Of a stretch of 64,000 nucleotides of DNA, positions 429 to 63,827 are shown one piece after another. Position 1 is the first letter of the stretch. The number at the start of each line of letters is the position of its first letter. Position numbers and translations under genes: made by a program. Source of the stretch: an uncultured bacterium (GTDB taxonomy: Bacteria > Armatimonadota > Abditibacteriia > Abditibacteriales > Abditibacteriaceae); the NCBI GenBank assembly GCA_963843795.1, contig CAWJLW010000006.1:2616375-2680374 (forward strand), given 5' to 3'. Below the pieces are notes generated by a model. It saw only the letters and a list, made by a program, of their open reading frames with translations, was not told the DNA's origin and searched no databases.

Positions 429-472
429 CGCTTCATTTTGCAATAATCAGCATCTGCAAGTACTTGCACGCT

Positions 473-1978
473 TTACAATCCATACAAATCGCCGTACTTA
501 CCTTGCAAGTACTTGCAGTAAGGTTCGATATCCAAAGCGCGGCCCGTCGCGCGCTCGACCAATTCCGCCGCCGTCCACACGCTGCCGCTTTGATACACAT
601 TATCACGCAACCATCCCAAAAGTGCGCTGTATTCGCCGCGCGCAATATCGTTGGAAATTTGCGGTTGAGCTTTTAAGGCGGCTTCATAGAATTGAGCCGA
701 TAAAATGTTGCCGAGCGTATAGCCTTGAAACGCGCCGCCAATCGTGCCGCCAAACCAATGTACATCTTGCAAACAACCGTCGCTGTCATCATCGGACGCA
801 ACACCTAAATCGGAACGGTAACGTTCGCGCCATGCATCGGGCAAGTCGGAAACTTCGAGCGAACCGTCCAACAAGGCCAACTCTAAATCGAAACGAATCA
901 TGACGTGCAGATTGTAAGTCACTTCGTCGGCATCGGTGCGAATGAGGGACGGCGCCACGCGATTGATGGCGCGATACCAATCGTCAACGGAAACATCACC
1001 AAGTTGAGACGGAAATTGATTTTGCAAATCCGAAAACCAGTGTGCCCAGAAACCTCGCGAGCGACCGACCAAATTTTCCCACAAGCGCGATTGCGCTTCG
1101 TGAACGCCCGAACTGGTGCCATTGGCCAGCGGCGTGGCTTCGTAATCGAGATTGATATTCTGCTCATAAAGCGCGTGCCCAGCTTCATGAAACGTCGAAA
1201 ACAAGGCTTCGGTCAGGTCGTCGTCTTTAACGCGCGTAGTGATGCGCACATCGCCCAGAGAAAACTTGGTCATGAACGGATGCGGCGTTTCGTCCTGACG
1301 ACCACGCGTGAAATCGTAGCCAAAACGGCCGATCACGGTTTCGGCCCACGCGATTTGTTCGGCACCGGGATAATTGCGACCTAAAAACGCCGTTTTCGGC
1401 TCGTCTTTTTCGGCAATTTGTGCGACCATCGGCACCAAACGTTCACGCAGCGGATCGAACATCTTGCGCACGCTTTCGACCGTCATGCCTTCATCGGAAA
1501 AATCGATTAGCGGATCGGCGATGTGCGCGTATCCGGGATAAAAGTTTGCCAATTCGCGCGATAAATCCAAGGTGCGCCTGAAATCGTCTTCGACGCTTTT
1601 CCAATCGTTATCGGGCCGCGCGCGCGTCCAATTTTGATACGCTTCGCTGAGATGATCGCTCAAGCGTGCTTCAAATTCTGCCGGAACCCGCGTCGCGCGC
1701 TCCCATTGTCGTTGCGTGACGCGAATCAAAGCCGCTTCGAAATTTGCGGGGTCGCTATCTTTTTCCAGCGGCTGCAATTCATCCAACCAGCGCCCAACTT
1801 GCGGATCAATAAATTTTTCGTGTGCCAAACGATTCAAGGTCGATAGCTGACGACCACGCGCAGGGGCGCCGCCGGGCGGCATATAGGTCGATTGATCCCA
1901 GTGCAAAAGCGCGCTCGCGCCGTGCAAATCATCGACTTCGCGCAGACGATTTTTCAAGTTTTCCAAAGTTGTATTCAT
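473..1978 (-). CDS. Carboxypeptidase Taq family (peptidase M32)
   Basis: 501 aa; WDQSTYMPPGG N-terminus, HPF, HEAGH zinc motif, HEAQS, IRTDADE, GCLQDVHW, YTLGN. Confidence 0.95.
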   Translation of the reverse strand: MNTTLENLKNRLREVDDLHGASALLHWDQSTYMPPGGAPARGRQLSTLNRLAHEKFIDPQVGRWLDELQPLEKDSDPANFEAALIRVTQRQWERATRVPAEFEARLSDHLSEAYQNWTRARPDNDWKSVEDDFRRTLDLSRELANFYPGYAHIADPLIDFSDEGMTVESVRKMFDPLRERLVPMVAQIAEKDEPKTAFLGRNYPGAEQIAWAETVIGRFGYDFTRGRQDETPHPFMTKFSLGDVRITTRVKDDDLTEALFSTFHEAGHALYEQNINLDYEATPLANGTSSGVHEAQSRLWENLVGRSRGFWAHWFSDLQNQFPSQLGDVSVDDWYRAINRVAPSLIRTDADEVTYNLHVMIRFDLELALLDGSLEVSDLPDAWRERYRSDLGVASDDDSDGCLQDVHWFGGTIGGAFQGYTLGNILSAQFYEAALKAQPQISNDIARGEYSALLGWLRDNVYQSGSVWTAAELVERATGRALDIEPYCKYLQGKYGDLYGL

Positions 1979-2017
1979 AATGTTCGCTGCAAGTACTTGC
2001 AGAACGTTTTTTGATAT

Positions 2018-2746
2018 TTACTCGCATTCCGCCGCATACGTCGTGCCCGGATGATCGCGCGGATGTTCGATGCGCGGTGCGCCTTGCGAGGGCGAGCCGT
2101 AGCGCGCGCGCGCATCGACGAGTTCTTGCGCGCGCGCGGGCGAAAAGACATTTTCGCGGCCTAACTGGCGCGCGACGAGCGAGATTTTGGCGAAATGTTC
2201 GACCATTTCCATCTTGTGATACGCTTCTAGAATATCGCGCCCCAAAGTTGTTACGCCATGATTGGCCAGCAAAAACGCGTCGTAATCGTGGACGTAATTT
2301 GCCAGCAAATCGCGCATCAATTCTGGCGTGCCGGGCGCGCCATATTTCACGAGCGGAACCGCGCCCAGATAAATCACCGCTTCAGGCAACAAGGCACGGT
2401 CGAGTGGCAAACCTGCGACAGCGAAACCAGTTGCGGTCGGCGGATGGGCGTGAACGACGGCGCGCACGTCGGGACGCGCTTCGTAAAACGCTAAATGCAT
2501 TCCGATTTCACTCGACGGGCGACCTTCGCCGCGCGCGACTTCGCCCTGTCGATTCACGACGACCAAAGATTCGGGACAAAGAAAACCTTTGGAAACGCTG
2601 GCAGGCGTAACCAAAATATCCGTGTCGGATAAAAGCAGCGACAGATTGCCATCATTGGCAGCGATATATTCGCGCTGCCAGATGCGCCGCCCAATTTCGC
2701 ACATCAATTGCCGCGCTTCGGTTTCGTTGATTGATTGGTTATTCAT
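2018..2746 (-). CDS. Class II aldolase/adducin family protein (L-fuculose-phosphate aldolase-like)
   Basis: DGNLS, PSSE..MH, HAHP and LLANHG metal-binding motifs; start placed at MNNQ (2746), not the longer ORF-track start. Confidence 0.9.
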   Translation of the reverse strand: MNNQSINETEARQLMCEIGRRIWQREYIAANDGNLSLLLSDTDILVTPASVSKGFLCPESLVVVNRQGEVARGEGRPSSEIGMHLAFYEARPDVRAVVHAHPPTATGFAVAGLPLDRALLPEAVIYLGAVPLVKYGAPGTPELMRDLLANYVHDYDAFLLANHGVTTLGRDILEAYHKMEMVEHFAKISLVARQLGRENVFSPARAQELVDARARYGSPSQGAPRIEHPRDHPGTTYAAECE

Positions 2747-2873
2747 AAAAATCATCTGCAAGTACTTGCAAGCCAAATGAGAACGTAGTTTGCCTTTTTC
2801 AAGCGCTAAAGCATAGACGCGGCGCGCAATTGGCTGTGATGCGACAACAGAAAACTCATTTTCGGAGGAATTT

Positions 2874-3215
2874 ATGACCGCCTTGCACAACGATCTCGAC
2901 CCGCTCGAACACACTTCCGGCGAAGCGCCGCATTTGGAAATGGAAGCCGATTCGCCTTCTTCGCAAGCTGACGCTGGCTTGCTAACCGACCCGGCAATTT
3001 CCGACACCGACTTCAGCGACGACGAAATGGAAATTCCCATGGCCGATTTGGATATCGAAAGTTTGGATGATCCGGTCACGCAGAACACGGTGCGTTCGCC
3101 GACGATGGACGCGCCCGACACGCCCGGCCAGATCGACATCGAAGCTCTCGGCGACTTCGATCTCGATGGCACCGATTTGCCAGCCGATGCGCGGCTCGAT
3201 CCAATTGAAGAATAA
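2874..3215 (+). CDS. Small, highly acidic hypothetical protein
   Basis: 113 aa, D/E/P-rich; GGAGG RBS just upstream of the ATG. Confidence 0.7.
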   Translation: MTALHNDLDPLEHTSGEAPHLEMEADSPSSQADAGLLTDPAISDTDFSDDEMEIPMADLDIESLDDPVTQNTVRSPTMDAPDTPGQIDIEALGDFDLDGTDLPADARLDPIEE

Positions 3216-6206: not shown

Positions 6207-6236
6207 AAGCGCGCTGCAAGTACTTGCAGCGCGCTT
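6207..6236. terminator. Palindrome-centred hairpin between the converging channel gene and mscL
   Basis: AAGCGCGC-TGCAAGTACTTGCA-GCGCGCTT, a perfect 30-bp palindrome. Confidence 0.65.
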
Positions 6237-9044: not shown

Positions 9045-9096
9045 TTGAAATCAAAAACGCCCCTGCAAGTACTTGCAGGGGCGTTTTTGATTTCAA
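9045..9096. terminator. Palindrome-centred bidirectional terminator-like hairpin after fusA
   Basis: Perfect 52-bp palindrome TTGAAATCAAAAACGCCCC-TGCAAGTACTTGCA-GGGGCGTTTTTGATTTCAA between converging genes. Confidence 0.8.
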
Positions 9097-12011: not shown

Positions 12012-12091
12012 ATTCTTTTCTCCGTAACCACTTCACATCTCAAAGCGCCCTGCAAGTACTTACGGGGCTATTGAAGCGTTTAATTTATTTA

Positions 12092-12517
12092 TTATTTCGC
12101 GGCGGCTTTAGGCTTTTTGGTGCCATATTTCGAGCGGCTGCGCTTGCGATCGGCAACGCCCGAACAGTCGAGAGCGCCACGCACGATTTTATATTTGATG
12201 CCGGGCATATCTTTAACACGACCACCGCGCACCAAGACCACGCTGTGTTCCTGCAAATTGTGCTTTTCGCCCGGGATGTAAGCGGTGATTTCTTTGCGGT
12301 TGCTCAAACGCACACGCGCTTTGGCGCGCAACGCCGAGTTGGGCTTTTTCGGCTTGTCGGTTTTTACCTGCAAGCACACGCCACGCATAAGCGGCGCGGC
12401 ATAATTGGTAGTCGGCGCGCCCTTGACACTGTTGAAAGCTTCCTTGAAAGCCGAAGTCGTGCTCTTTTTAGGTGCGGGCTTACGTCCTTTACGAATTAAC
12501 TGCGAAATTGTCGGCAT
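12092..12517 (-). CDS. rpsL: 30S ribosomal protein S12
   Basis: [48 protein letters not shown]. Confidence 0.97.
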
Positions 12518-12664
12518 CCTGACTCCTGAGATTTTCCAAACGTCTGATTTCTAATTTATTTTCCAATCTCATCAAGTTCGGATGAGACCAAAGATGTTGA
12601 GACTAATTTTGTCACACGAAAAATCCCCCGCTGGAATGCGTCCAAACGAGGGACAACCGGAAAC

Positions 12665-12693
12665 ATTATAACAATTGAACGCACACCCTGCAA
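12665..12693 (-). promoter_or_regulatory. Sigma70-type promoter of the rpsL operon
   Basis: Minus strand TTGCAG (12693-12688), 17-bp spacer, TATAAT (12670-12665). Confidence 0.65.
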
Positions 12694-12745
12694 CCGATTT
12701 TTACCTCGCTGGCATCTGGAATTGCTCTACAAGTACTTCCAGTGG

Positions 12746-12786
12746 CAAAACGCGGGACGCATTCAGTGATTGCGTCCCGCGTTTTG
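12746..12786. terminator. Intrinsic terminator downstream of the large surface-protein gene
   Basis: CAAAACGCGGGACGCA-loop-TGCGTCCCGCGTTTTG inverted repeat with A/T tails. Confidence 0.75.
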
Positions 12787-12804
12787 TCACTGCCCACACT
12801 TTCT

Positions 12805-15800
12805 TTAACGAACGCGTAGCACGACGCGCAGGTTATTGACGAACGTTTTCACATAATAGCCTTTGCGCGGGGCTAAGAAGTTAGAAGCCACATACTGACC
12901 CGAACCGTCGTCGCTAAGTGTGACTGGAGGTGCATCGCTGATAAGACCAGCACCGGCGGCTTCGCGAATTGAATTAAAGACACGGCCATCGGGTGCGATA
13001 ACGCGTGAGCGATACCAGTCGACATTGCCATAACGCGGATCGAACGGCGAACCGATGGCATTGTAGCCGTTGTTGACATCGCGGCGGCTGGGATCGAGAT
13101 TCAACGTAATAGTGAATTCGGTCACCGGCGTAACGAAGCGGTCGCGGAAAGTGGGAGGTTCGCGCAGGCTAGTGCCGTCACTCAGCACACGCAGGAAGAG
13201 ACCTTCACCGCGCTTGATTTGCGAGTTGAGCGCCAGTTGCACATAGCTCTGCTTCAAGGCATCGTAGCGAAACAAGGTGAAAATTGGCGCGCCATTGGTA
13301 TCAAGAGTTTTGGTGAATGCCTTGGTCGGCGTTGTCGTGGCGCTGGTTGCTGTCGAATCAGAGAACGGAATCGTAATCTGATACGTATTGCCAGCCGTGT
13401 AAGTGTCAACCGCATTTCCAGTGGTTGGCGTTGGCGTCGGCGTGCCGCCTGGTGTGTTTCCGCCGCCACCAACCACAATGTTAATATTGGGCGCAGTGAT
13501 GTTGGTACTGGTTGCTGGCACTGTGACGGTGACAAAACCGCCATATTGCTGACCACTGATAGCAATCGTCGCTGTAATACGATAAGTGCCCGGTTGCACA
13601 TCGCGGAACGAGTAGACACCGCTGGCATTGGTCGTCGTACTTTGCAAATTGCCAATATTGCCCGTCAATTGCACTGTCGCATTGGCTACCGCCAGACCAG
13701 CGCGCAACACGCGACCAGAAATACCACTGCCCGCACCGGGCAATGCGATATCACCCAGATCGAGCGAGGTTCCAGCGGGCACCAAGATGAAGTCTCCAGC
13801 GGGCACATTCGGCGGCTGCGCGGCGTTGAAATTGGGGTCAGTTGGAATCACGCGACGACCGAAGTTCGCATTGGGTTGAATATCGGCGGTTGACAGTGCC
13901 GTAATTGATGCCCGAACCATCGGGAATATCGCCGCCCTGCGATACAAAGCCAACGCGCGGATTGAAGACGATCTCAACTCGCAAGTCGGACAATACATTG
14001 GAGAACGAGAAGTTGCCGAACGCATCGGTCTGCGTCAACAGCGCGAACGGACCACCCGAAGGGAAGTTGGTCGAAGGCGGAATGTTGGCATCAATCGAGC
14101 GCAGCAAAACTGGCACATTGGGCGCGACTTGCACTTCGGGATTGGCGTCGTCGTTCAAGTTGTTGGGCGTGCCGCGATCACTGATCGCGCGACCCGAAAT
14201 CGAACTGGGCGGCGTCGGATTGACACGAAAACTGATGCCATTGTTATCTTCTCCACCGAAAACGGTGAGGATAGTCGGAATATTCTGGTTGTAGAAATAG
14301 CCCGGATTCAGCGAACGGAACACACCGGCTTGAGTATCGAGATAGGCCGCTGGTGCCACGCGGTAAGCGAAGTCGCCCGCAGGAATGCCCAGGATCTCGA
14401 AGTTACCATTGAGATCGGTTCGAGTCAGGAACAAGCGATTGTTCTGACCTGGATCGGTAATTTGGACTAAGAAGTTGGGAATGGGCAAGTTGGTCGCCGC
14501 ATTGATGACGCGACCACTGATGCTACCAGTGCGCAGGTAGTTAGCCACGTTATTGGCAATTTTCGCGCGGTAATTGCGGCTATAGCGAAAGTTATCGGCA
14601 TCTACATATTCGCGGTTAATTTCTTCCAAACCAAACCCGAAGAACACAACGCGCGACTCGGCTCCGTTAGTACGATTGCGCTGTTCGACGCGCTGTGCTG
14701 CCAGACCACGACCATTTCCATAATTGTAGATAGGCGCAATGGTAGTATTGGTATCACCGTTAGCGGGTGCGATGATGTCAGGTAAGTTGTCGTTATCAGA
14801 AGCGTCGAAATATGTGTTGGCCGGGTCGTTTAAGGCAACGGATTGAAAGGGACGTGCAGGTTTTTGGGCGGATCAGGGAAATGTCTTACCGGGCAAGTCG
14901 CGATTGGCAATCGGTCCGTCATCTGTGCCCGCGATATCGAAGCCGAAGTTGCCCCCCACTAAAACATCAGCCGCACCAGTTTCGCCACCCCAGTTAGCTT
15001 TCAGTTCATCGGTAAGGAACGAGTTGGAAGCTGTGCCCGCGTTGGACAGGGCGAAAATAATATCTTGTCCGTTCATGAACAAGCGCCCGCCAATAGACAG
15101 GAACAGTTTCAAGTTGGATTGAGTTTGCACATCGAAAATCGAACCAGGTGCCGCCAGCACGCCACCCGTGTAGGGCGATGCCCAAACAATGGCAGTTGGT
15201 GCCACAGTGACCGGAATCAGCGGATCGGTGGGTAATGTTCCCGGAATCGGTGTCGCAGTCGGTGCTACGGTCGCTCCACTCGCGGTTGGCGTCGGTGTCG
15301 GCGTGGTATTGAAAACGCCGTTGACTCTGACCGGGAACTGCGCGGCGTTGGGGTCGATCTGCGTGGTAATTTGAGGTGCATACAAGCGCATAATGCTGGT
15401 CGGCACCGGGCCACGCGATAAAATACGCCACACATCGGTACTCGTCGAAGCACTACCGAAACTGGCCGAAGTGGGCGGAGAAAAAGTTGTCGTATCGGCG
15501 CGGCCATTGTTGGCAATTGCCAAGTCAGCTGGCGTAATTGGAGGGTCGGTGTCATTGAGATAGACGAAGCCGCCCGGGTTTTCCAGGTGATAGCTTTCTA
15601 CCGAAGGCAAACCCTCAATAGTTCCAGCAGCATTAACACTTGAGCGTCCGCTGGCATCAAAGCCATTGAGCAATTCCTCGGGGAACGCCTGACCCGAAGT
15701 GTAATCAGCGACGAAAAGCAAATTGGCCTGCTTGCGAAACGCCTGCGTCGAAAAACCATAAACCTGGTCATAGGTAATGGTGTTACCGAGCTTATCCGTC

Positions 15801-18142
15801 ACGGTCAGGTCAATGAAAAAATCGCCGGTTAAATTAGCGCCGGTTGCATCCTTGGCATCGAACGAACCTTGCACATAATATTGACCATCGCCCGCGATGG
15901 CATTGCTTTGACGTTCGTGACCACCCTTGGCAGGAGGACCATCGTCATAAACCGACATCGGAAGATCGGAAACCACAACTTGGGGCTGCTGCTCGACGGC
16001 AGTCGTGACACGAAGGCCATTGTTGACTTTAGTGGTCAGGCCGACAAAGCTCGGCTGGTCGGCGTCACGAATCGAAACGGTTGCTGAAGTTCCTGTAAAG
16101 GGATTGCCGGGAGGCTGCACGATAGGAACCGGGGTCGCAGTGGGCGCTGGGCCAGCGACCGGCGTTGCAGTCGGGACTGCAGTGGGCGTGGTGCCCGGTT
16201 CGCCCGTATTAAGACCGGTTTCCTGTTCAGAAATCACTGCGGCAATGATCAATTTGCCGCCAGGCGCCAAACCTTCTTCAAAAGTGCGCGGTGCAAAAAA
16301 CGGTGCCTGACGGCCCGGTGCCACAAAAGGAGTGCGCTGACTGCCTACGCCGACTGGCACCAGTAATGGCGGCGTAAAATCCTGCGCCTGTGTTGTCCAA
16401 ATATCGTGTGTGGCTGCCTCGCCGACGCCACCACCCGGATTAACAACCGGCGGAGTGGGGCTTTGCGCATTGTCTCCCGGACGACCCGCGCGAATGCGCT
16501 GTGAGGTAAAAGCAATCGGCGCAATGACCGCAGACGAATTACTGGAGCGTGCAAATGCCGGTTCGCGATCTGACGAGCGATCTTCTGTGATACCAGTTTT
16601 ATTTCCCGCAACCGAGCCTGCCGAAGAAAACAGGTTCGATTCAACGCGCGCCGGAACCGGATTTTGTGTACTGCCTTCAAAAGCGGGACGCGGCAAAGTC
16701 GGCGGGCTCAAAATCAAAACGGTACTGCGCGTTTCAATAGCCAGAGACCAAATGTTCAAATCGTTGAAACCGTCGGTCGAGTCAATGCGGCTGTTGCTTT
16801 GAAAAGCCAATTTTTCGGTGAATGGAGCGGAATTGAAACCGACTTGAAAATTACCGGTCGTTGAAGCCGAAGGATAATCGTCGGCATCATTCACCGTGCC
16901 ACCGCGCGCCAGAGGGTTGGTAATCTGCCGCTTGAATTGGCCAGTCGCCGAGTTCATAGCGAAAATGCGTCGTCCGGTCGTTAACACAGTTGTCTGTGTG
17001 GCTGTGCCCGAAACCGTTACATCGCGGTTCGAAGAAAAGAACATGATGCCCGCATTGACTTGCGAATAGCTGGGATGCCGGTCGTCGGTAAGGTTGCCAT
17101 CCACATCTTGCGGATCGGTCGGCGTGGGCGCGCTGGCCTGTTTGCCATCGGGATCGCCGGTCAAACGGCGCACCGAAAGTGCGTTGCCGTTGGGGTCAAT
17201 GGTGAAAATATCGAAGCGACCGCCCACGTTAGCTATCGCATCATTGTTGCGCCCCGGCGCTACATTGGAAGCAAAAGCGATACTGCCGCCATCGGGACTC
17301 CAGGACGGGTCTAACTTTTGACCTGGGAAAAAAGTGACTTGTGTCGGGGTTTGCGCCGTGCGTCCAATGAAGTTGGTGACAATCGACAACTGAGTGACCG
17401 AAGCCGAAAACACATCGACATAAGCCAGACGATTGCCATCGGGCGACCACGTCGGAGCGCGCTGATCGCGAGCCGCGTCTACACCAAAACCGGTGACCTG
17501 CTGGGCACGGGAGCCATCGCGACGCATGATCCAAATATGATATTTCTTGTTGGTGCTAAAGCCACGCGAATCCAAAACACCATCGCCGTTGGCATCAATG
17601 CCATTGGACGAAAACGCGATATAATCGGAAGTCGGCGGGCGATAAGTCGGTTCGCGCTCATCGCTGACCGTGTTGGGCGTCAGGTCAACTTCGGTCAAAG
17701 GAAACTGGCGCGCGGTGAAACTACTGCCGCTTCTGCTCACGCCGCGCAATGATGCCTGACGCGCACGACGCTGACCGTATTCGGCCACTAGCTGCGGCAA
17801 TTTGTCCCAATCCATTACCTGATGCGCCGCTGCTTTATTGACGTCCTTCGGCGCTGGCTTTGTAACAGCAGTGTCGCTTTTTTGCGCCAAGGCCCACCAA
17901 CTGCCGCCCACAACAAGCGCTACCAGACACGCTGCAAGTACTTGCGGATGCGCGTAAGCCGCACGACGCGCGCGCTGCGTGTTTTTCTGCGCACTCTCGC
18001 GTTTTTGAGCGACACCTTTACGAGCGCTGCTGTGATGAGTGCCCGTTGGAAGCGTGCGCGGTTGCGAAGTCGTATCTTCCTGAGCAGAAGGCGAAGCGCC
18101 CAGAAAAACTTGCTGCCAGAATCGGGAAAGACGGTCGTTCAT
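12805..18142 (-). CDS. Very large (~1,780 aa) membrane-anchored/secreted protein with PD40/TolB-like beta-propeller repeats and carboxypeptidase-regulatory-like beta-sandwich domains; broken by an in-frame TGA (14873-14875) and a +1 frameshift (~13890)
   Basis: PTWSPDG/PSWSPDG repeats, SISGRV..., P/T linkers; ORF-track pieces 14873-18253 and 13838-14647 share a frame; AAAGGA RBS before ATG 18142 (start uncertain). Confidence 0.75.
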
Positions 18143-18543
18143 AAATTTCCTTTGGCGAATCGTCCCAAAGCGGGATCGTCGCTTTCTCAATGAAGAAACA
18201 ACGCGCTCACTCATAAAGCAAACGCGCAAAAATTCAATAAAATCCAACGGCAATTCCGCAAGCGAAATCGCACCTAAAATTCTCGAATCCAGAACATTTT
18301 TGCCTTTATATTGACAAAAATTATGGACATCGTAGAAAATTTGGCGATTGGTTCGACAGTATAGCCGCCAAATTGTTCCATCTCAATCGCTGTGCGTTTC
18401 TTTTTTCCAAACCGTGTGCAAACTGTGTGATGCGCCGCGTTCAATCGAGCAGATTTGCACGCTGCCAAATGCACAACGCACCTGCAGGTACTTGCAGGTG
18501 CGTTTTTTAATTATTCTGTGTAGTCAGTTTGTTTGGCCACGAG

Positions 18544-19512
18544 TTACCAACCGCGTGTTGCCATGCGTTCGTCGTCTTTCATGGTGCGCACGTCCAGGCT
18601 GCCCATCGCTTCGCCCAAGTTCATTGAGGCTTCGATGAGCTTGTGCGGATCGTCGTAATAGGCAACAGCATCGACGATGGCGCGACCCCGTTCTTCGGGA
18701 TCGTTGCTTTTGAAAATTCCGCTACCTACGAAAACGGTTTGCGCGCCCAATTGCATCATCAGCGCGGCATCAGCAGGCGTCGCTACGCCACCGGCGGAAA
18801 AGTTTGGGACGGGCAATTGTCCGGTGCGCGCGACCTCGCACACCAGTTCATAAGGTGCACCCAGGTTTTTGGCTTCGGTCATCAATTCTTCAAAGGGCAC
18901 ATTTTGCAAACGCTTGATCGCGCCATGAACCGTGCGCAGATGACGCACCGCTTCGACGACGTTGCCGGTTCCGGCTTCGCCTTTGGTGCGAATCATCGCC
19001 GCGCCTTCGCCGATGCGCCGCAACGCTTCGCCCAAATCGCGACAGCCACACACGAACGGCACCTTGAAAGCATGCTTATCGATGTGATATTGCTCGTCGG
19101 CGGGCGTTAAAACTTCGCTTTCATCGATGAAATCGACTTCCAGAGCTTCCAAAATCTGCGCTTCGACAAAATGGCCGATGCGCACTTTGGCCATCACAGG
19201 AATCGTAACTGCGCTTTTGATTTCGCGAATTAGTTTCGGGCTGCTCATGCGCGCCACGCCGCCATCGCGCCGAATATCTGAAGGCACGCGTTCCAGCGCC
19301 ATCACGGCAATTGCGCCCGCTTGTTCGGCGATAATCGCTTGTTCGGGCGTGACAACGTCCATAATCACGCCGCCCTTGAGCATTTGCGCCAGCCCCACTT
19401 TGGTGGCAAAAGTCGCCTTGCGGTCATTGAGCGTAATTTCGCTGTTGGCGTTGGCTCCGTTGGCGTTGGCTCGGTTAGAATTGGGCGCGCCATTCAAATT
19501 TTGATTTTCCAT
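18544..19512 (-). CDS. pdxS: Pyridoxal 5'-phosphate synthase lyase subunit
   Basis: [62 protein letters not shown]. Confidence 0.97.
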
Positions 19513-19764
19513 AACAATCTCCTCCATACGCAAATCCACACTGCGCAGAAACGATCTCAGAACGATTTCAATCCCTTGATTTTTACCGTTAGTTTTTCAT
19601 GAGAACTTCAGTCTAAACGCACAACAACAGCCCGCGCCGCACTTTTCAGTTGACACAGCGATTATAATCACCACATCGCCACGCCAAAACACGCCCGCAA
19701 GTAGTTGCAGCAGTACTTGCGGGCGTGTTGCTGACATGATAATTAGCGCTTCAGCACGATAATT

Positions 19765-44473: not shown

Positions 44474-44575
44474 TAGGCTGCAAGTACTTGCAGAAAACAA
44501 ATAAACAGTCACAGATTGCGTGCAAGTACTTGCGCGCAATCTTCTCACATACATTCAGAATTTTAAGTTTTTGTC

Positions 44576-45055
44576 ATGATCGCACTGCCCTTGCTGGCCG
44601 TTGTTGTCGGATTTTTTCTCTTTTACGGCCCGATGCGCGGGCTGGAAGCCAACGAAGCCTTCGCCCGTTACACCGCGATTGCGGTTCTGGCCGGATTGGA
44701 TACCGTCCTGGGCGGCTTACGTGCGTGGCTCGACGATGCTTTTGACGACTTGGTTTTTATCAGCGGTTTTTTCGTCAACGCGCTTTTAGCGGCGGGATTA
44801 GTGTTGCTGGGCGAAAAAATTGGTCTGGAAACTGGCGTCGGCGATGGTCGCATTTCGGTCATGATGGTAGCAGCAGTGGTAGTGTTTTCCAGTCGGATTT
44901 TGAACAATCTGGCGGTTTTGCGGCGCTTAATTATCAATCGCTGGCGCGCGCGGCGCGATAATAATACGCATCACGAAACTGAAGTGGCGACCAGTGAAAT
45001 CGTGATGTCTGATAAGAGTACGGACGAAAACCGTAAAATCGCGCTACCGAATTGA
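44576..45055 (+). CDS. sbp: Small basic protein Sbp (DUF1290)
   Basis: YTAIAVLAGLDTVLGGLRA, FISGFFVNALLA, RILNNLAVLRR; next to DUF881. Confidence 0.85.
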   Translation: MIALPLLAVVVGFFLFYGPMRGLEANEAFARYTAIAVLAGLDTVLGGLRAWLDDAFDDLVFISGFFVNALLAAGLVLLGEKIGLETGVGDGRISVMMVAAVVVFSSRILNNLAVLRRLIINRWRARRDNNTHHETEVATSEIVMSDKSTDENRKIALPN

Positions 45056-45169
45056 AACCTGATTTTGTTAGAATAACGATGCTTCATTGCAAAGAAGCAT
45101 CGTTTTGTCATCGTAAATCGCACAGAGATTAGCCGAGAGCGCTTGCGCTATCGGCAAGGAGGAGTGGGC

Positions 45170-46714
45170 GTGCCGCGTGAAGGAATTGTTGTTGGCCTGG
45201 ATATTGGCACGACCAAAGTTTGTACTGTGGTCGGGCATGGTGATCCTCGCGGCAAAATCAGCATTGTCGGCGTCGGCACCGTCCCGTCGCGCGGCATCAA
45301 GAAAGGCATCGTCATCGATGTCGAAGACACCGTCGCCGCTATCCGCGAATCGGTCGAACGCGCGCGCCACATGGCGGGTGTCGAGTTCGGCGGTGCCATC
45401 GCTGGCATTACGGGCGATCATATCCAAAGCTCGAACCGACGCGGCATAGTCACGATTGCCGGCGAAGGCGGCGTGATCGTGCCCGAAGATGTCGAGCGCG
45501 CCCTGCGCGCTGCGGTGATGGATGTACCTGCCGACCGCGAAATCATTCATTCGCTGCCACGCTTTTTCGCCGTTGATGGACATCGCGGCGTGCGCCGTCC
45601 GATTGGAATGTGCGGTCAGCGCCTGGAAGTCGAAACCCATGTCGTCACCGGCACTTCGAGCTTTTTACAAAACGTGGTGCAGTGCGTCGAGCGCGCCGGT
45701 TTAACCGTGCAGGCTTTGGTTTTAGAACCGATTGCCACCAGCGAAGCTGTGGCAACTGCCGACGAGCGCGAGCTAGGTGTTGCCTTGATTGATATTGGTG
45801 GAGGCACCAGCGATTTAGCAGTCTTTATGGACGGCTCGATTATCGATTCGCGGGTAATTTCGGTCGGCGGCAATCATGTTACGCGCGATATTTCGATTGG
45901 CCTGCGCACGCCGTTTGATTTAGCCGAGCGCTTGAAAATTGAAAGCGGTGTGGCGAGCGCGAGCTTGATTCCGCACGGCGAAGCCCTTGAAGTGATGACG
46001 GCGGGTAGCGGTGAGCGACAACGTTTGCCGCGCGCGATTTTGGGCGAAATCATCGAAGCGCGCATGAGCGAACTTTTGGAAATGGCACGCGAAGCGATGG
46101 GCGACCATCGCCTGCCCGCGGGCGTGATTTTGACCGGCGGCGGCTCGATGTTACCGGGCGTTATCGAATTGGCGCAAGATATTTTTCAATTGCCGGTGCG
46201 ATTGGGCCAGCCGATTAATTTGGCCGGTTGGGGCGAGCAAGTCGAGACACCGCAGTTTTCGACTGGTGTTGGCTTGTTGCGCTTCGGTTTGCGTCAGCGC
46301 GAAGCGGTTGGTAACCCGACAATTGGTAGCGAAACTACGCCGGTTTTGCATTCGGCACAAGTTCTCAACGAGCAGGCGCGCCGCATCTGGAGCAATCCCG
46401 TTCCGGCCACTTTTGCACCCTTGGCAACACCCGCCAATAACATCAACGGCGCGTTTACAGAAAATGGCAATGGCACCGCACCGTTACCTGCCGATTCCCA
46501 TTCTACAGAAAATGATGCAAGTAATGATGAACGCAACACGCCTTTTGACCAACTTCCGGCTTCAACGCCCGACGCTGCGGAAGTAACTAAAGTGAGCGCG
46601 GCCAACACGATAGTAAACTCTCCTACGGCTAAAGACGATGACGAGCCGGAATCGTGGTGGAGCAAGTTGCTCTTAAAACTGCGCCAGTTGGTTGGCTTCG
46701 TCGAATCGTCGTAG
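45170..46714 (+). CDS. ftsA: Cell division protein FtsA
   Basis: VGLDIGTTKV, LIDIGGGTSD, GGNHVTRDI, LTGGGS; AAGGAGG RBS before GTG; long disordered tail ending in an amphipathic helix. Confidence 0.95.
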   Translation: MPREGIVVGLDIGTTKVCTVVGHGDPRGKISIVGVGTVPSRGIKKGIVIDVEDTVAAIRESVERARHMAGVEFGGAIAGITGDHIQSSNRRGIVTIAGEGGVIVPEDVERALRAAVMDVPADREIIHSLPRFFAVDGHRGVRRPIGMCGQRLEVETHVVTGTSSFLQNVVQCVERAGLTVQALVLEPIATSEAVATADERELGVALIDIGGGTSDLAVFMDGSIIDSRVISVGGNHVTRDISIGLRTPFDLAERLKIESGVASASLIPHGEALEVMTAGSGERQRLPRAILGEIIEARMSELLEMAREAMGDHRLPAGVILTGGGSMLPGVIELAQDIFQLPVRLGQPINLAGWGEQVETPQFSTGVGLLRFGLRQREAVGNPTIGSETTPVLHSAQVLNEQARRIWSNPVPATFAPLATPANNINGAFTENGNGTAPLPADSHSTENDASNDERNTPFDQLPASTPDAAEVTKVSAANTIVNSPTAKDDDEPESWWSKLLLKLRQLVGFVESS

Positions 46715-46865
46715 CCCCGCCAATCTCATCTGCAAGTACTTGCGAGCGAAGTTTAAGGTGGCAAAACGCTGTCGCCCCGATTTCTGTGGTTCAGCCCGTT
46801 CAATTCTGCACGCAAGTACTTGCTCATACGGGCAACGTTTCCCGCAACGTCTCAAAGCGAATTTC

Positions 46866-48132
46866 ATGCAATCAACGCTTCCCATTTCGCCTTCTGCCGA
46901 GTTTGCGCCACTTCCGCTGCGCCAACGCGGCGTGCTGGAAACGCTGGACACGGCGTTCAAATTGTTCCGCCAATATTGGAAACCGTTGCTGGCGTGGGCG
47001 GCGATTGCGGGCGCAGTCAATCTGATTCCTTTCCTGAATTACGTCACTTTCTTTTTCACGCCGCCTCTGGTCATCGGCGCGGTGTGTTGCTGCGTGGCTG
47101 CCGCAGTGCGCGGACAAAACGTCGGATTCAAGCAGTGCTGGCGATTTCTCAAGCCACGCTATTGGAACGTGGTGGCGATGCATGTGCTCTCAGGCATCGT
47201 ACTTTTTGCCGCGATTTTCGGTCTGGTTTTTCTGGCCGCTATTGGCATCGCTGGCGTAGTGAGTCTGCTTTCTTCCATTGGCGACAGCTGGGTGAGCATT
47301 CTGTTTTCAATTGTTCTATTTTCCATATTGCTTATTATCTTCGGCGTGACAACAACGGCGCTAAGCATGTGGCAGTCGTTAACAACGGTTGTGGCATGCA
47401 TGGAAGATGATCCGCAGAATAGCGGAGCAATGAAGCGCGCTTGGAATTTAATGAAAGGTCAGTGGCGTGCAGTCGTCAATATCTCGATGATTCTGGGTTT
47501 GTCGATGCTGGTTTTGTGGGGTATTCTGGCTGGAATTTCGGGACTTTTTCTGGGCATGGGCACGCTACGCGATATCGCGCGCGGCTATGATGTTACTCAA
47601 CGATTCGGGTCTTTTGGGTTTCGTTGCTTCGATAATGGTATCGTCGTATGTGGTGATGCTGTTCTATCTGCCGCTGCATTATCTTTCGGCGACGCTGCTT
47701 TATCTGGATTTCCGCGTGCGCAAAGAAGCGCTCGATTTGGAATGGACGGCGCACTCCACTTCACTGCGACCTGAAACCGCGCCGCCACCGTCTGTGGCTC
47801 ACAGCGGCAACATTTTCAATCCAACCGCGCAGGAACTACAACCGCCACCTCAAACCAGCTCTTGGGACGAAGCACGTCCCGTCGCTCATAACTCAATCGT
47901 TCACACGCCTCCGCCGATTGCATCCGCCGACACGCTGCCGCCCTACTCGCCAACGACACACAGTGCGGCAGCGCAAGAGTTACCGCGCGCCGAATTTGCT
48001 CCTGAAACGCCATCACAAAACAACCAAGCGACGACAGAGAAAAATATTTATGGCGCAGGGCTGGGCTTTTCGCCCGATGCACCCGCGAACGAAACGCCGG
48101 CAGAGCAGACGAATCCAACACGTCAAGATTAA
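46866..48132 (+). CDS. Multi-TM membrane protein of the type found with DUF4129/DUF4350; one +1 frameshift (~47593)
   Basis: LDTAFKLFRQYW..., C-terminal LLYLDFRVRKEALDLE; removing one base joins the two ORF-track pieces into 422 codons. Confidence 0.7.
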
Positions 48133-48183
48133 GATCAAGAGCAGTAATATCGCCGCGCGAAAAAATCTAACTGAATCCTTGTC

Positions 48184-49388
48184 ATGCTTGCTCGCTTGCG
48201 ACTTTTATTTCCGGAGCTGTGGCTTTTTGCCTTCGCGCTATTGATGCGCGCACCCGCAAGCGTGGCTCAGGTTCCGACCCCAGTTCCGACGCCCGGCCTC
48301 GCGCCCGCAATCAGCGCCCAACAATATGCCGGAGAATTACAACGCGCCGAAAGTTTGTTGCGCGCCCAGAAATCTGTGACGCAGCGCGATTTAAAAGCGC
48401 CCTTATCGAGCCTTGCAGTGCGGCGCGATGTGCGACGCGAAGATGGAGCGACTCAGCGCGTCGATGGCAGTGTGTGGAAACAATTTTTGGATTCACCTGA
48501 AAATTACTTGAAACCCAATCCGAAACCGACATCCAAAGCCGCGCCCAATGCGACACCAACGGCGGTTCTTCCCGCCATCGGCACCGTGCCCACAGCCGGC
48601 GCGGTTTCGGCTGCCATTAAGACGCTCGAACTGCAGCAACGCACTTTGCAGGAGTGGGCGCAGCCGCGCAGTGGCAAGTACTGCGTGGCGATGCGAGCGC
48701 TGCGGCGTATATTAAGTCGCTGGAAAAGCAGGGCGTTATTCGCACCGGGCCTACGCCGATTCAACAATTTTTGCAAAATGCGTGGCGCAATTTGTATGGG
48801 CTGTGGGATAAATTTGTTGATTGGCTGGATCGCCTGTTCAGCCGTTCGTCGACGTCTTCGGTGCCAACGATTGATCCGGCTTGGGCGCGCGCCATCGCCA
48901 TTTTGTCGATTGCGGGAGTGCTGCTTTTGGCCGCAATTTTAGCGTGGCGCGCCATTGGCGGGCGTTGGCAACGTAGTGAAAAATCGCAATCGCTGTTGCA
49001 AAGCGAAGACGAAGCTCTGCTCGATTTGCCACCCGATGAACTGCTCGACCGCGCTCAGATAAACGCCCGCGCGGGCAATTTCCGCGAAGCGCTCCGCCAT
49101 CGCTATCTATCGCTTTTGCTGCAACTGGAAGCGCGCGGCGTGTGGCATTACGAACGTCGTCGTACCAACTGGGAACACATTGCGCGCCTGCGGCTTTCGC
49201 AAGCTCATAACAGCGCCGGAGTCGAACAATTGGCGAATCTCACTTCGCGTTTCGACCGCGTACGTTACGGAAACGCCGATTGCGATCAAAATCACTGGGA
49301 AACTTTCGACCGCGACGCCCAACAAACGCTGGAAGCGCTGGCTTCCTCACGTCCCGCCGCGTCCGGTAATTTCGAGGTCGCGCGATGA
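48184..49388 (+). CDS. DUF4129 domain membrane protein; one 1-nt deletion (~48682)
   Basis: AGNFREALRHRYLSLLLQL...RRTNWEH...FDRVRYG; restoring one T gives ...SGKYLRGDASAAAY... and 402 codons. Confidence 0.8.
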
Positions 49389-50614
49389 AAAAACGCCGTC
49401 TTCATCCTGGCGCCATCTTCGCCGTTATAGTATTTCTGCTTTTACTGGGCTTTGGCCTAGTGATGCGCGAGGGCAATAATTCGACCGGCTGGACGCCGCG
49501 CATCGGCTGGAATGATGACACACCGTTGGGCGGCAAAGGCTGGCGGATGCTGCTGGAGCATCAGGGCTATCGACTGCGTCGCGTAGATAGGCCGTTGAAG
49601 CAAATGCCAAACGACGCGCAGGTGTGGATGCTGCTCGACCCGCTCACGCGCTTTTCCCAATCCGAAGCTTCGATGCTGCTCAAGTGGGTGCAGGACGGCC
49701 ACACTTTGATATGGGCCGATACTTCGAGCAAAGAGCGCAGCGAACTCGATTCCAAAGCTGTCAACTCGCCCGCCCTGAATTTGATGCGCGAAAAATTGGG
49801 CTTGCAGGAATGGCGCACCGCTTCGTTTAAACCGCGCGCCGGCTTGCCTCTGCCGCCTTTGGTGCCTTTGGGCGACGGAGACGTGAATCCGTATCGCACC
49901 GACGCCAATGGCGCGAGCGCCAGTGCAGCAAGCGTATTCTCATCGCGTGCGAATGTGCAAATTTTCGGTAATCGCGGAGAAGCGCAACTCATGATGATTC
50001 CGTATGGCAAAGGCCGCGTTTTCCTGATGGCCGATGCTCTACTATGGACGAATATGGCATTGAGCAAAGCGCCCAACACGATTCTAGCAACCAATTTGAT
50101 TCGCGCTCATCATCAGCCGGGCGCGACGATCATCTGGGACGAGCGGCAGCACGATGCAGCAACCGCAACCGAAGTGAAGCCAAATGTATTGTATTACTTA
50201 TGGCGTCCACCGTTACGCTGGGCGGTGCTGCAGGTACTTGCAGGCCTGCTTTTGCTGTGGGCTTTCAAAGCGCGCCGACTGGGACGCGCCGTGCCATTAC
50301 CTGTTCAGGAACCTGTCACGCGCGCTTCTCAATGGGCCTTGGCGATGGCGTCTTTGTTTCAAAAAGCCGAGCGTCCGCAAAGCGCAGCGGCGACAACAGG
50401 CGAAGAGTTTCGCCGCCAATTCGCTTTACGCTTAGGCTGTTCGCCCGCCGATAGTGACGCCACGATTGTCGCGCGAGCCGCGATGCAATTGGATATTCCC
50501 GCTTCGCATCTCGATCATTTATTGCTGCGCGCGCGTACGCCATCCGAAAACCCAGCGCAAATGCTGCGCGATGCTCAGGAAATGGAACTGTTGCTGCGCA
50601 CTCTGCGCCGTTGA
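49385..50614 (+). CDS. DUF4350 domain protein
   Basis: TM, LLKWVQDGHTL, YGKGRV, TNMAL, IWDE, RRLGRAVP; follows DUF4129 with an overlapping stop/start. Confidence 0.8.
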   Translation: MKKRRLHPGAIFAVIVFLLLLGFGLVMREGNNSTGWTPRIGWNDDTPLGGKGWRMLLEHQGYRLRRVDRPLKQMPNDAQVWMLLDPLTRFSQSEASMLLKWVQDGHTLIWADTSSKERSELDSKAVNSPALNLMREKLGLQEWRTASFKPRAGLPLPPLVPLGDGDVNPYRTDANGASASAASVFSSRANVQIFGNRGEAQLMMIPYGKGRVFLMADALLWTNMALSKAPNTILATNLIRAHHQPGATIIWDERQHDAATATEVKPNVLYYLWRPPLRWAVLQVLAGLLLLWAFKARRLGRAVPLPVQEPVTRASQWALAMASLFQKAERPQSAAATTGEEFRRQFALRLGCSPADSDATIVARAAMQLDIPASHLDHLLLRARTPSENPAQMLRDAQEMELLLRTLRR

Positions 50615-55299: not shown

Positions 55300-55344
55300 G
55301 ATGAATTTCTCCAAACGCCACTGCAAGTACTTGCAGTGGCGTTT

Positions 55345-57537: not shown

Positions 57538-57573
57538 AAATGCGCTCCTGCAAGTACTTGCAGGAGCGCATTT
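57538..57573. terminator. Palindrome-centred hairpin after gltB
   Basis: AAATGCGCTCC-core-GGAGCGCATTT(TTT). Confidence 0.7.
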
Positions 57574-62370: not shown

Positions 62371-62696
62371 AATCTCTCCCAAACCGCTCTGCAAGTACTT
62401 GCAGAGAACAAAACGGTGACGAACACCGCGATATTTTTATTTCCGACTTCCATCAATTTAATGGCAAATAACTCGATAACAACGCCAGCGAACTCGCAAA
62501 TGCGCCTACTCATACTTATCACGCAGCCATATCGGAATTGTTACGGGAATGTTTCGTGTCATGTAACAATTTTTGGCCTTTCAGTGTGCCCGATAAAGCC
62601 GCGTAAAACCGCAGCGTGTAGCTGACAATTTCTAATAATTCTTTTCACACCGTTAATTTTCGCACTTTTGGCGCACAATTGGCGAAGTGCGCTGAT

Positions 62697-63356
62697 ATGT
62701 CCTCAAATCCTTCCACCCAAGATTTATCCGGCAATGCCAATCAGACCGCGCCCAATGGCAAAGATCGCAATGCTGATTTGCACGGCTTCGTGCCTGATTC
62801 ATGCACGGTCGCGCTGCTTTTAATCGACGTTATCAACGATTTGGAATTCGACGGCGGCGAGAAACTTTTACCGCACGCACTGCCAATGGCCAAGCGTTTG
62901 GCAACGCTTAAAAAGCGCGCGCACGAGGCAAAAATCCCCGTCGTTTACGTCAACGATAATATGGGTCGCTGGCAATCGGATTTTCACGCCGTCGTCGATG
63001 CTTGCTGCGATAGCAGAGTGCGCGGCCACGAAATCGCCAATTTGCTAAAGCCCGACGATCAAGATTATTTTGTTTTAAAGCCCAAACATTCCGGCTTTTA
63101 TTCGACGACGCTCGACTTGTTGTTGCAATATCTCGGCGCACGCACTTTAATTCTCTGCGGAATGGCCGGTGATATTTGCGTTTTGTTTACAGCCAACGAT
63201 GCCTATATGCGCGACTTCAACATCATCGTGCCGTGTGACGGTCTGGCTTCTCAAAGCGAAGAAAATAACACGCACGCCGTCGAAATCATGCAGCGCGTTT
63301 TGAAAGCCCAAACGTCGAAGATCGAAGAACTCGATTTGCCAACGTTGTTGAAATAA
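62697..63356 (+). CDS. Isochorismatase-family cysteine hydrolase
   Basis: LLLIDVIND, YVNDN, KPKHSGFY, GMAGDICVLFTANDAYMRD. Confidence 0.9.
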   Translation: MSSNPSTQDLSGNANQTAPNGKDRNADLHGFVPDSCTVALLLIDVINDLEFDGGEKLLPHALPMAKRLATLKKRAHEAKIPVVYVNDNMGRWQSDFHAVVDACCDSRVRGHEIANLLKPDDQDYFVLKPKHSGFYSTTLDLLLQYLGARTLILCGMAGDICVLFTANDAYMRDFNIIVPCDGLASQSEENNTHAVEIMQRVLKAQTSKIEELDLPTLLK

Positions 63357-63398
63357 ACGGCAGACAAATTCTTTCTGCAGGTACTGGCAAAGCGAATT

Positions 63399-63743
63399 TC
63401 ACGCTTTGCCTTTTCGTTTTTCTTTTGCCTCTTTTTTCGGCTCGACTTCTGGCACTTGCATCCACGGCATTCCCGGCACGCCGCGCCGCGATTCTTTCGC
63501 GGTTTCATCCAGCGCGCGCTTGAAACGTTGTAAGCGGCGCACGGTGATAATTATCATCACCAGCAGCGAAATTCCCAGCGCGAAGTTCCACACCATCGCC
63601 ATTGGCACATTGGCTTTGAGGGCGCTTTGACGCGCTAGAAACCACGCCCACAACAAAACGAAGCTCGCCACCATCGCCAAAGTTTCCCACAGCGGATGCT
63701 TTGTCGTTGGCGTCGAATCGGAAGCAGATTTTCGTGAAGCCAT
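63399..63743 (-). CDS. Small 2-TM hypothetical protein
   Basis: Two hydrophobic helices and a basic tail. Confidence 0.65.
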   Translation of the reverse strand: MASRKSASDSTPTTKHPLWETLAMVASFVLLWAWFLARQSALKANVPMAMVWNFALGISLLVMIIITVRRLQRFKRALDETAKESRRGVPGMPWMQVPEVEPKKEAKEKRKGKA

Positions 63744-63827
63744 GCATCACAGTTTATCAAACGAGGCAGCAAGTACTTGCAGCACAATTTCCAGCGCGTA
63801 AACTCGCGCCATTCCAAAGGAGAAAAT

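Follow-up and report, generated by a model that had tools for sequence, protein, structure and literature searches.

How does a bacterial genome come to carry the same short palindrome about once per gene? Neisseriaceae, Pasteurellaceae and cyanobacteria have hyper-abundant words by which DNA is recognized as self, and the question of how such words start is raised anew by a 64-kb stretch of the genome of an uncultured member of the Abditibacteriaceae (contig C6:2616375-2680374 of the genome denoted G000; hereafter, the window), in which the self-complementary word GCAAGTACTTGC recurs throughout. Here, we report a comparative analysis of this palindrome, its relatives and the genes that accompany it in 27 Abditibacteriaceae genomes. 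The palindrome looks like a newly and independently evolved label of self-DNA.

An iterated palindrome and its dialects

An earlier note, made from the letters of the window alone, had counted 43 exact copies and about 10 near-matches, with most copies extended. The recount agrees, with 43 exact copies from 456 to 63769-63780, six with one mismatch and seven with two; 24 of the 43 are lengthened to TGCAAGTACTTGCA. Counted genome-wide, as the earlier note had proposed, the word occurs 2,567 times in G000 (4,299,948 bases, 11 contigs), 879 times as CTGCAAGTACTTGCAG, against 7.4 copies expected under an order-5 Markov model of the motif-masked genome. On the 3.6-Mb contig C6, the copies are evenly spread (629 per Mb, 98-144 per 200 kb). 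All twelve positions are held, words with one mismatch numbering about 500 in total, and the word is over-represented both between genes (1,776 copies) and, as had also been seen in the window, within them (766 copies), as in HIP1 (highly iterated palindrome 1)-like palindromes; these two counts are approximate, given the simple purpose-built gene caller (3,676 genes) and the frameshifts of the assembly.

Because the G000 assembly is rich in frameshifts, the genes of elongation factor G (EF-G) and glutamate synthase being broken into pieces, the motif was checked in other data. A contig of run X1 covers the copy at 46732 with zero differences (206 and 63 flanking letters), and three of four two-copy spacer strings from public-run contigs were recovered in G000; run X1 and its sister runs form one study, maybe the source sample of G000, and hence check the sequencing technology rather than independence. 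In metagenome assemblies, a two-copy pattern matched 43 stretches, eight of which (62-68% GC; best protein matches 61-84% identical to G000) carry GCAAGTACTTGC, at 0.25-0.55 per kb in the seven long contigs among them. The abundance of GCAAGTACTTGC is not an assembly artefact: confinement to one contig or absence from short reads, the signs for which the earlier note had asked to look, gave way to a word found genome-wide, in run contigs and in other metagenome projects. A 16-mer scan of genome contigs gave at least 36 single, scattered matches.

The exact word occurs 0-3 times in each of the 40 relatives first searched. The palindrome is nevertheless maintained across genera, in the form of GTAC-centred dialects that comprise five words in seven of the 27 family genomes. 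Apart from G000, these are G001, with CAAAGTACTTTG (AAGTACTT 2,725 times against 48 for the control); G009, G015 and G019, which have TCGAGTACTCGA in common (2,770, 2,510 and 2,261 copies); G012, with CGAGTACTC(A/G), that is, CGAGTACTCR (RAGTACK 4,697 against 1,332); and G006, with a 24-26-bp palindrome of two GTACGGTCGA halves (1,473 and 1,508). GTAC sits at the foot of the hairpin that the G006 unit forms, and 240 kb of that genome hold 68 perfect and 32 one-mismatch units. The half-site of the unit is one base off the core of the uptake signal sequence (USS) of Haemophilus influenzae, a core not found in the two papers searched for it. Another genome, G017, shows only a faint trace (59 AAGTACTT, under the control). 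Most other genomes of the family avoid GTAC, with RAGTACK at 9 against 1,214 for the control in G005, 6 against 1,387 in G008 and 31 against 778 in G007. Outside the family, none of 119 genomes of the phylum exceeded 2.4 times the control, in a survey limited to the RAGTACK core and so crude that the motif-positive G006 scores 2.0. Two other families of the phylum (G035, G052, G089, G101; L163-L166) are nearly devoid of GTAC, CTAG and ACGT, with 0-1 GTAC per 20 kb. The literature covered, from which subscription papers were mostly absent, gave no occurrence of GCAAGTACTTGC and, among the papers listed, no iterated palindrome in Abditibacteri- or Armatimonad-related work; one or other of three further dialect words turned up in four papers, all unrelated.

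The copies arose by substitution, and proteins have been rewritten to accommodate them. The 766 coding copies of G000 are read in three frames, QVLA (507), KYL (144) and ASTC (115), and lie flat along genes. The peptide QVLA is found 579 times, whereas permutations of it have a median of 37.5, and is written with the motif codons 515 times against 2.3 expected. Site-containing genes align with their orthologues without gaps at the site in 59 of 67 pairs, with identity at the site of 0.34 against 0.64; a window copy in the gene of D-Ala-D-Ala ligase likewise aligns gaplessly to motif-less orthologues in G001, G003 and G006 and was thus made by substitutions. The excess of gaps in the remaining eight pairs (12% against 2.8% in controls) suggests that sites sit in permissive stretches. 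In motif-positive relatives, GTAC stands in register at 5 of 37 sites, against 4 of 880 controls, and always in the relative's own dialect, a conservation of sites like that of HIP1-like palindromes. No signal of target duplication was detected at the copies, in line with what had been noted in the window. A search for Y1_Tnp transposases gave one weak 140-aa match in G000, none in G006 and none common to carriers, and short Ssn-type GIY-YIG nucleases are absent from G000, G001, G006 and G012, with two in G009. The ungapped orthologues, the lack of target duplication and the lack of a shared Y1 transposase or Ssn nuclease together indicate that the copies were written by substitution and then kept.

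Foreign islands of G000 are poor in the palindrome. Among about 360 10-kb segments of the genome, the 10 ranked as most atypical hold 0-2 copies each, against about 6.5 in a typical one, and plasmid-like contigs carry 74-349 copies per Mb, against 629. A contractile tail-like cluster on G000 contig C3 (2634-27317; sheath-, tube- and baseplate-like open reading frames (ORFs) by eye), with zero motif copies in 32 kb, is recently acquired DNA. By contrast, small mobile elements with a D5-type primase or DnaB helicase and a helix-turn-helix (HTH) protein (metagenome contigs L245, L265, L254, L256) carry 1.3-1.8 copies per kb with the flank pattern of the host, and some genes of L265 recur on G000 contig C8. 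The viral contigs L304, L305, L347, L286 and L311 show a 68-kb phage, of 38-42% GC, in which AGTGCAAGTACTTGCAC(A/T/G) stands between genes at intervals of about 3 kb; this word is probably the operator of the phage itself.

Phased arms, spacing and hairpins

The flanks of the copies had been taken to be unrelated in the earlier note; they are not. They share CT..AG shoulders, an A-tract or T-tract 8-11 bases off each edge and phased arms to about 70 bp, and 10 of the 43 window copies continue into perfect hairpin arms of at least 9 bases. Each site is the dyad of a statistical element of about 140 bp, in which AA/TT/AT steps peak 15, 25.5, 36, 46.5, 57 and 67 bp on either side (period 10.54, amplitude 0.041; 5,132 arms in G000), with G/C steps in antiphase; the pattern fades by 75-90 bp. 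The 730 arms without the first tract have an unchanged amplitude (0.042), and arms anchored on control tracts reach 0.011, about a quarter of that of motif arms. Phased arms are present in coding copies and in intergenic copies without hairpins, and the same phase recurs in the G009 dialect (0.025, p 0.003), in pooled G012, G015 and G019 (p 0.04) and in mobile elements (p 0.02). Control arms around a Neisseria DNA uptake sequence (DUS) have an amplitude of 0.016 (0.008-0.013 for unpaired copies), and those around HIP1 on 200 kb of a Nostoc plasmid have 0.017 with the opposite phase (9.8 against 4.4).

Copies are also positioned relative to each other. The distances within close pairs follow a 10.5-bp phase (n=192, Rayleigh Z 16.4 against a null maximum of 10.8), and tandem copies 10-13 apart occur. 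Beyond close pairs, there is mutual repulsion of copies, which reaches 0.6-1 kb in G000, G009 and G006, and the density is 0.6-1.1 per kb. The coefficient of variation (CV) of the spacing is 0.65 in G009 and 0.49 in G006, far evener than random, and 0.86 in G000 against 0.87 in a DUS genome. Coding copies lie farther from intergenic ones than random positions do (median 1,049 against 707). Density is flat along the contig, GC-skew turning points included.

The palindrome is 15-fold denser between genes than within them (3.06 against 0.21 per kb). In G000, it occupies 287 of 480 convergent gaps, with arms of at least 10 bases in 179 of 304 such copies, and computed folds around the copies give terminator-like hairpins with U tracts. 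Such co-option by terminators is found in G000 and G006 and is rare in G009, where 103 of 190 copies lie in long ORFs and few are extended by hairpins. That the palindrome would be purely a transcription-termination or promoter element, for which the intergenic enrichment and the strong hairpins speak, is very improbable given the coding copies spread evenly along genes, the occupancy of 237 of 503 divergent gaps, the absence in our scan of any fixed offset of copies to -10/-35-like words, and the situation in G009. Where three or more copies are clustered, no DNA-binding gene is indicated.

The copies in the window are listed in Table 1. Tandem, partly imperfect doublings of the word lie within hairpins at 24514-24537, 37657-37681 and 19697-19720; G000 as a whole has 45 pairs 12-13 apart (one mismatch allowed), which could be slippage or read error. 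The window genes for EF-G (9103-11264) and the large subunit of glutamate synthase (57588-62394) are in pieces, most likely through long-read frameshift errors. Rfam identified only the signal recognition particle (SRP) RNA and two tRNAs in the window, and its DNA matched no phage.

Table 1. Copies of the palindrome and associated hairpins in the window
Feature	Position	Strand
43 exact GCAAGTACTTGC copies	starts 456, 505, 1989, 2758, 3222, 5276, 6216, 9065, 11489, 17934, 20726, 21992, 24514, 24526, 25317, 25994, 27054, 28358, 28842, 29684, 31472, 32033, 34270, 35243, 35524, 37657, 38590, 40230, 42016, 43516, 44480, 44522, 46732, 46812, 53491, 54199, 55323, 55654, 56722, 57550, 60580, 62391, 63769	.
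Six one-mismatch copies	12052, 18484, 19697, 29167, 42292, 50230 (span 12052..50241)	
Hairpin-extended copy, arm 9, convergent genes	6207..6236	.
Copy at apex of perfect hairpin, 20-bp arms, GUAC loop, convergent genes; bidirectional intrinsic terminator-like	9045..9096	.
Terminator-like hairpin, copy at apex, U tract, arm 13	21979..22016	-
Two head-to-tail copies in one hairpin (tandem duplication; assembly sequence only)	24514..24537	.
Terminator-like hairpin 3' of recR, arm 11	25306..25339	-
Hairpin-extended copy in ybaB/recR gap, arm 11	25983..26016	.
Coding copy in dnaX, QVLA frame	27054..27065	-
Hairpin-extended copy, arm 12, flanked by two tRNA genes, SRP RNA downstream	28830..28865	-
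Hairpin-extended copy, arm 11, convergent genes	31461..31494	.
Terminator-like hairpin, arm 11	32022..32055	-
Pair of coding copies, read as QVLA and KYL, in 3-dehydroquinate synthase	35243..35535	+
Coding copy in D-Ala-D-Ala ligase, QVLA	42016..42027	+
Close pair, 42 bases apart (four helical turns)	44480..44533	.
Hairpin-extended copy 3' of GIY-YIG/UvrC-like gene, arm 10	55313..55344	-
Terminator-like hairpin, arm 12, 3' of glutamate synthase pieces	57538..57573	-

The methyltransferase and the nuclease-like gene

The earlier note had seen no methyltransferase or competence gene in the window. This is true of the window and not of the genome, which encodes comEA, comEC, dprA and pilus genes and a single PF01555 methyltransferase about 99 kb before the window (C6:2517365-2518135, minus strand), beta-class-like by its motif order (DPPY first). 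Two type I-like methyltransferases and a broken one accompany it in G000; Dam-type and C5 enzymes are absent from G000 and G001 and patchy in the others. Orthologues of the PF01555 enzyme are present in 21 of the 27 family genomes and in none of four outside the family. All seven motif-positive genomes have it, so that the co-occurrence with an orphan methyltransferase that the earlier note had suggested looking for does exist. The tree of the enzyme follows that of GyrA except for G020, and its loops are near-invariant; no gene neighbour is conserved across the family. Homologues of it are named Abditibacterium utsteinense and Abditibacteriaceae, which places the host in that family; as a guide to specificity, the nearest named matches, at 32-36%, are not decisive.

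In G003, G017 and G020, the methyltransferase gene stands tail to tail with a gene for a 227-244-aa protein that resembles type II restriction enzymes (PADLOC REase_II, E 9e-11) and is PD-(D/E)XK-like. A hydrophobic leader is present in 106 of 119 homologues; weak PvuII, ScaI and DpnI look-alikes in Atlas are leads only, and no solved structure matches the profile. This gene, intact or split, occurs in 13 of the 27 genomes, all motif-negative or faint, and is missing from all seven motif-positive ones in single-sequence and profile searches, the assemblies of G001 and G019 having a completeness of just 63% and 77%; the six frames of G000 gave no homologue (best E 3.1). In A. utsteinense, the methyltransferase and the nuclease-like gene share a contig. 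Among methyltransferase carriers, it is present in 0 of 7 motif-positive and 12 of 14 motif-negative genomes (Fisher p 3e-4, an overstatement since the genomes of one family are kin and not independent). The motif-positive G015 retains two nuclease fragments beside the methyltransferase, where G017 and G020 have the whole gene.

The representation of GTAC varies with these genes. In the pooled loci of nuclease carriers, it is the second most depleted 4-mer (0.29). Its observed/expected ratio in sampled loci has a median of 0.20 for the 13 genomes with the nuclease and of 0.38 for the seven motif-negative ones that lack it, and it is 0.65 in pooled G002, G010, G021 and G023, which have neither gene. 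We infer that GTAC is the target of both enzymes. A search for PabI-family nucleases matched none of five genomes and lacked any positive-control match.

The nuclease-like family has 952 homologues, many in Verrucomicrobiota, with distant copies in cyanophages, and is a candidate periplasmic or secreted restriction nuclease (loci L158:4614-5348 of G003, L157:6049-6765 of G017, L160:2378-3061 of G020, and L515-L518). G008 has a fragment of such a gene immediately downstream of one for a helix-hairpin-helix (ComEA-type) protein. In three GTAC-poor genomes, a gene combining HARE-HTH with an Mrr-type nuclease lies directly 5' of the same methyltransferase (L147:579-1376 of G005, L149, L097).

The competence set is present, with comEC, comEA, dprA, PilB/PilT-type ATPases, comM and recA motifs intact, and so are MutS and MutL motifs. 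There is one HU only; histones of PF00808 and PF09123 were absent from the five genomes searched for each, with positive controls. A single six-blade GyrA C-terminal set, with no second set, is found in 25 of the 27 genomes, and no separate topoisomerase IV subunit with GyrA-type blades was seen in the family. The window itself encodes the nucleoid protein YbaB/EbfC between dnaX and recR (26030-26353). The Borrelia member of this family binds GTnAC; as YbaB/EbfC is widespread, it is not taken as the reader of the palindrome.

Origin and maintenance of the palindrome

The palindrome belongs neither to HIP1 nor to the uptake sequences, although it would function as they do, and it looks like a new, independent origin with a probable history in restriction-modification. 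This bears out the class assigned in the earlier note (lineage-specific, maintained and HIP1- or uptake-sequence-like), and the word is neither a member of a REP (repetitive extragenic palindromic) or MITE (miniature inverted-repeat transposable element) family nor an artefact. Like HIP1, it is a hyper-abundant palindrome found about once per gene, in and between genes, presumably centred on the site of an orphan methyltransferase, with exceptional lineages that use other words; HIP1 raises transformation, an effect that depends on methylation (10.1101/2024.09.10.611283). HIP1 proper, the cyanobacterial GCGATCGC, is a different word in a different phylum. The palindrome is longer, with 12-14 bp (24-26 in G006) against 8, has a GTAC core and flanks that change by dialect while the methyltransferase stays, is co-opted by terminators, has stronger arms of opposite phase, shows repulsion (CV 0.5-0.9 against 1.22 for HIP1) and is tied to the loss of a restriction-enzyme-like gene. 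With DUS of Neisseriaceae and USS of Pasteurellaceae, it shares thousands of near-perfect copies, origin by substitution, protein rewriting, dialects with a common core (PMC3630211), terminator hairpins, depletion in foreign islands, flanking AT tracts, on the bending of which USS uptake depends (PMC7811141), and competence genes. It differs from them in that no ComP/ComN-like receptor has been identified, in the candidate link to methylation, in the enrichment of small mobile elements, in arms phased to about 70 bp, and in that, being self-complementary, a single copy makes a hairpin.

Other known systems are more distant. HpyAXII/PabI of Helicobacter pylori resembles the Abditibacteriaceae genes in the genome-wide avoidance of GTAC, in a methyltransferase that is conserved while the nuclease decays and in limiting foreign transformation, but it pairs a gamma-class methyltransferase with a half-pipe nuclease, against a beta-class-like enzyme and a PD-(D/E)XK-like, signal-peptide-bearing protein here, and the available part of that report describes no iterated palindrome (PMC2588503). 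The Escherichia coli SlmA site GTGAGTACTCAC is a 12-bp palindrome that shares GAGTACTC with the dialect of G009, G015 and G019 and is bound by a homodimer, but SlmA sites are excluded from the terminus region (PMC3020112), whereas the thousands of copies here are of flat density; the same flatness excludes macrodomain sites of the SlmA-binding or matS type, of which there are tens, restricted to the terminus or excluded from it. Chi sites are non-palindromic and oriented with replication, whereas this motif is its own reverse complement.

Our favoured reading, which we regard as about equally likely to be right or wrong, is that the palindrome is a methylation-marked tag of self-DNA that grew from a restriction-modification site and that, once the nuclease had gone, natural transformation drove its spread. 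The inferred components of this reading are a methyl mark on GTAC, a reader that is dimeric and bends DNA, and the transformation drive. The ancestor of the family would have had a type II system in which the methyltransferase marked GTAC and the mostly signal-peptide-bearing nuclease cut unmarked incoming DNA. Lineages that kept the nuclease would have purged GTAC, and those without both genes would have drifted back towards normal. Lineages with the methyltransferase only may have evolved a homodimeric, DNA-bending reader of marked GTAC and 4-5 flanking bases per side, which would favour tagged fragments at the uptake or recombination step of transformation, such that untagged alleles give way to tagged ones and point substitutions build up the tag at every place where it is tolerated. 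We propose that the 10.5-bp arms exist because fragments bend best with A/T steps phased around the site, that copies repel each other below about 1 kb because one tag per fragment suffices, and that species dialects follow from changes of the reader; many intergenic copies were co-opted as the apex of intrinsic terminators. Among the mechanisms named in the earlier note (repair, uptake and a nucleoid protein), we favour a drive through uptake or recombination because it is the known process that rewrites thousands of codons and is compatible with switches of dialect and with complete loss in related genomes, and because parts of the anatomy are each supplied by HIP1, USS and DUS (10.1101/2024.09.10.611283, PMC13756078, PMC7811141, PMC3630211, 10.1101/2025.10.24.684340).

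Several observations weigh against this reading. To our knowledge, no uptake sequence is a palindrome. The genes comEA and comEC and the minor-pilin operon are also present in motif-negative genomes, and two pilins of one operon, out of at least 37 prepilin-like genes in G000, were compared over 21 genomes and bear no signature of positive charge where the motif is present. The target of the methyltransferase is read from word depletion only, and its nearest solved relatives mark other sites. The nuclease-like gene adjoins it in only three examined genomes, besides the G015 remnant, so that the two may not be a cognate pair. G004 and G007 have the methyltransferase and neither nuclease nor motif, and GTAC is depleted also where no methyltransferase orthologue was found, in G013, which has the nuclease-like gene, and in G016, which has neither gene. 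By tolerance of mismatches, the GTAC core is stricter than the arms in G009 and no stricter than them in G000. Small D5-primase mobile elements, with 1.3-1.8 copies per kb, are denser in the word than the chromosome, whereas mobile elements of Neisseriaceae are told by their atypical DUS distributions (PMC7371117). The arms of G000 are at least 2.5 times stronger than those of the DUS and HIP1 controls. Finally, phased arms were undetected in G001, G006 and the GC-rich metagenome contigs (124, 136 and 110 arms) by a test with adequate power, as G000 subsamples of 130 arms were positive in 38 of 40 cases.

The main rival, an unlikely one in our estimate, is a chromosome-packing code, in which an abundant, sequence-specific nucleoid protein, maybe reading the methylated core, sits at each palindrome and wraps or bends about 140 bp symmetrically, so that every gene would have a nucleosome-like particle or the tip of a pinned loop, and selection on chromosome structure keeps the sites. 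The symmetric arms reaching about 67 bp, also in coding copies and other dialects, the phasing of close pairs, the very even spacing in G009 and G006 and the richness of mobile elements in sites all suit such a code, and the register of the arms matches that of nucleosomal DNA. No known histone is available for it, as the searches above exclude nucleosome positioning by PF00808 or PF09123 proteins and there is one HU, although other folds are possible. The genomes without detectable arms speak against it as well, exclusion reaches 0.6-1 kb, far past a 140-bp footprint, and the spacing of G000 is no evener than that of the DUS genome. Dialect switches and total absence in close kin fit an essential code poorly unless a drive rewrites the sites. 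A structural role has been argued for HIP1 (PMC5861425). A combined version, which we hold to be improbable, has a restriction-modification system with a periplasmic nuclease domesticated into a positioning code, with methyl-marked GTAC as the dyad of a nucleosome-like particle of about 140 bp formed by a non-histone protein about once per gene, and dialects as barriers to gene flow.

Still more doubtful is a repair ratchet, by which gene conversion or methyl-directed mismatch repair close to marked GTAC would preserve whichever strand carries the extended site, up to a density of about one per kb, with no further function. The methyltransferase in all seven motif-positive genomes, the MutS and MutL motifs and the distance of coding from intergenic copies are in keeping with it, and density and repulsion match the set point of Elhai's HIP model (PMC4390886, section 3.4). 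That model, however, fixes one base per side of the methylated site, against 12-14 strict bases and arms to 70 bp here (PMC4390886); the dialects change while the methyltransferase loops hardly do, and no nicking enzyme was identified.

That a transposase or single-strand nuclease spread the palindrome in the manner of REP/REPIN or of some very small mobile element is largely refuted and has very little probability left. Hairpin-extended and tandem copies, the long G006 hairpin and the gapped orthologue pairs resemble REP or BIME (bacterial interspersed mosaic element) repeats with their RAYT (REP-associated tyrosine transposase) and Neisseria NTS repeats with Ssn, which are likewise short intergenic hairpin repeats. 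The prevailing ungapped pairs, the in-frame coding copies in three frames and the lack of target duplication count against insertion of a REP or MITE, and no repeat-flanked Y1 transposase or short GIY-YIG nuclease common to carriers places the palindrome in either system. Least probable of all is that the copies are strong gyrase sites with the central GTAC as the place of the cut: the motif of E. coli gyrase, symmetric and 130 bp long, has arms with a period of 10.75 bp (PMC6379681, section 23), and most family genomes have the single GyrA set, but the published A/T tracts, hand-read at about 19, 29, 38.5, 50 and 61 bp from the cut dyad (supplement row DS10, PMC6379681), are 3-4 bp out of register with those around the palindrome, and the published motif is degenerate and not a strict 12-mer; the available parts of PMC13284261 and PMC12324340 add nothing decisive.

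The Abditibacteriaceae show three states together: GTAC avoided in the presence of the nuclease, iterated where the methyltransferase stands alone, and nearer normal where there is neither. With these three states and the remnant of a lost gene in one family, the idea that such words originate in restriction-modification can be put to a direct test. As a footprint of the putative reader that can be measured, the phased 140-bp anatomy might lead to a new DNA receptor or chromatin protein. In practice, the dialect words serve to recognize contigs and mobile elements of these bacteria, which have barely been cultured, and to predict which DNA should transform them.

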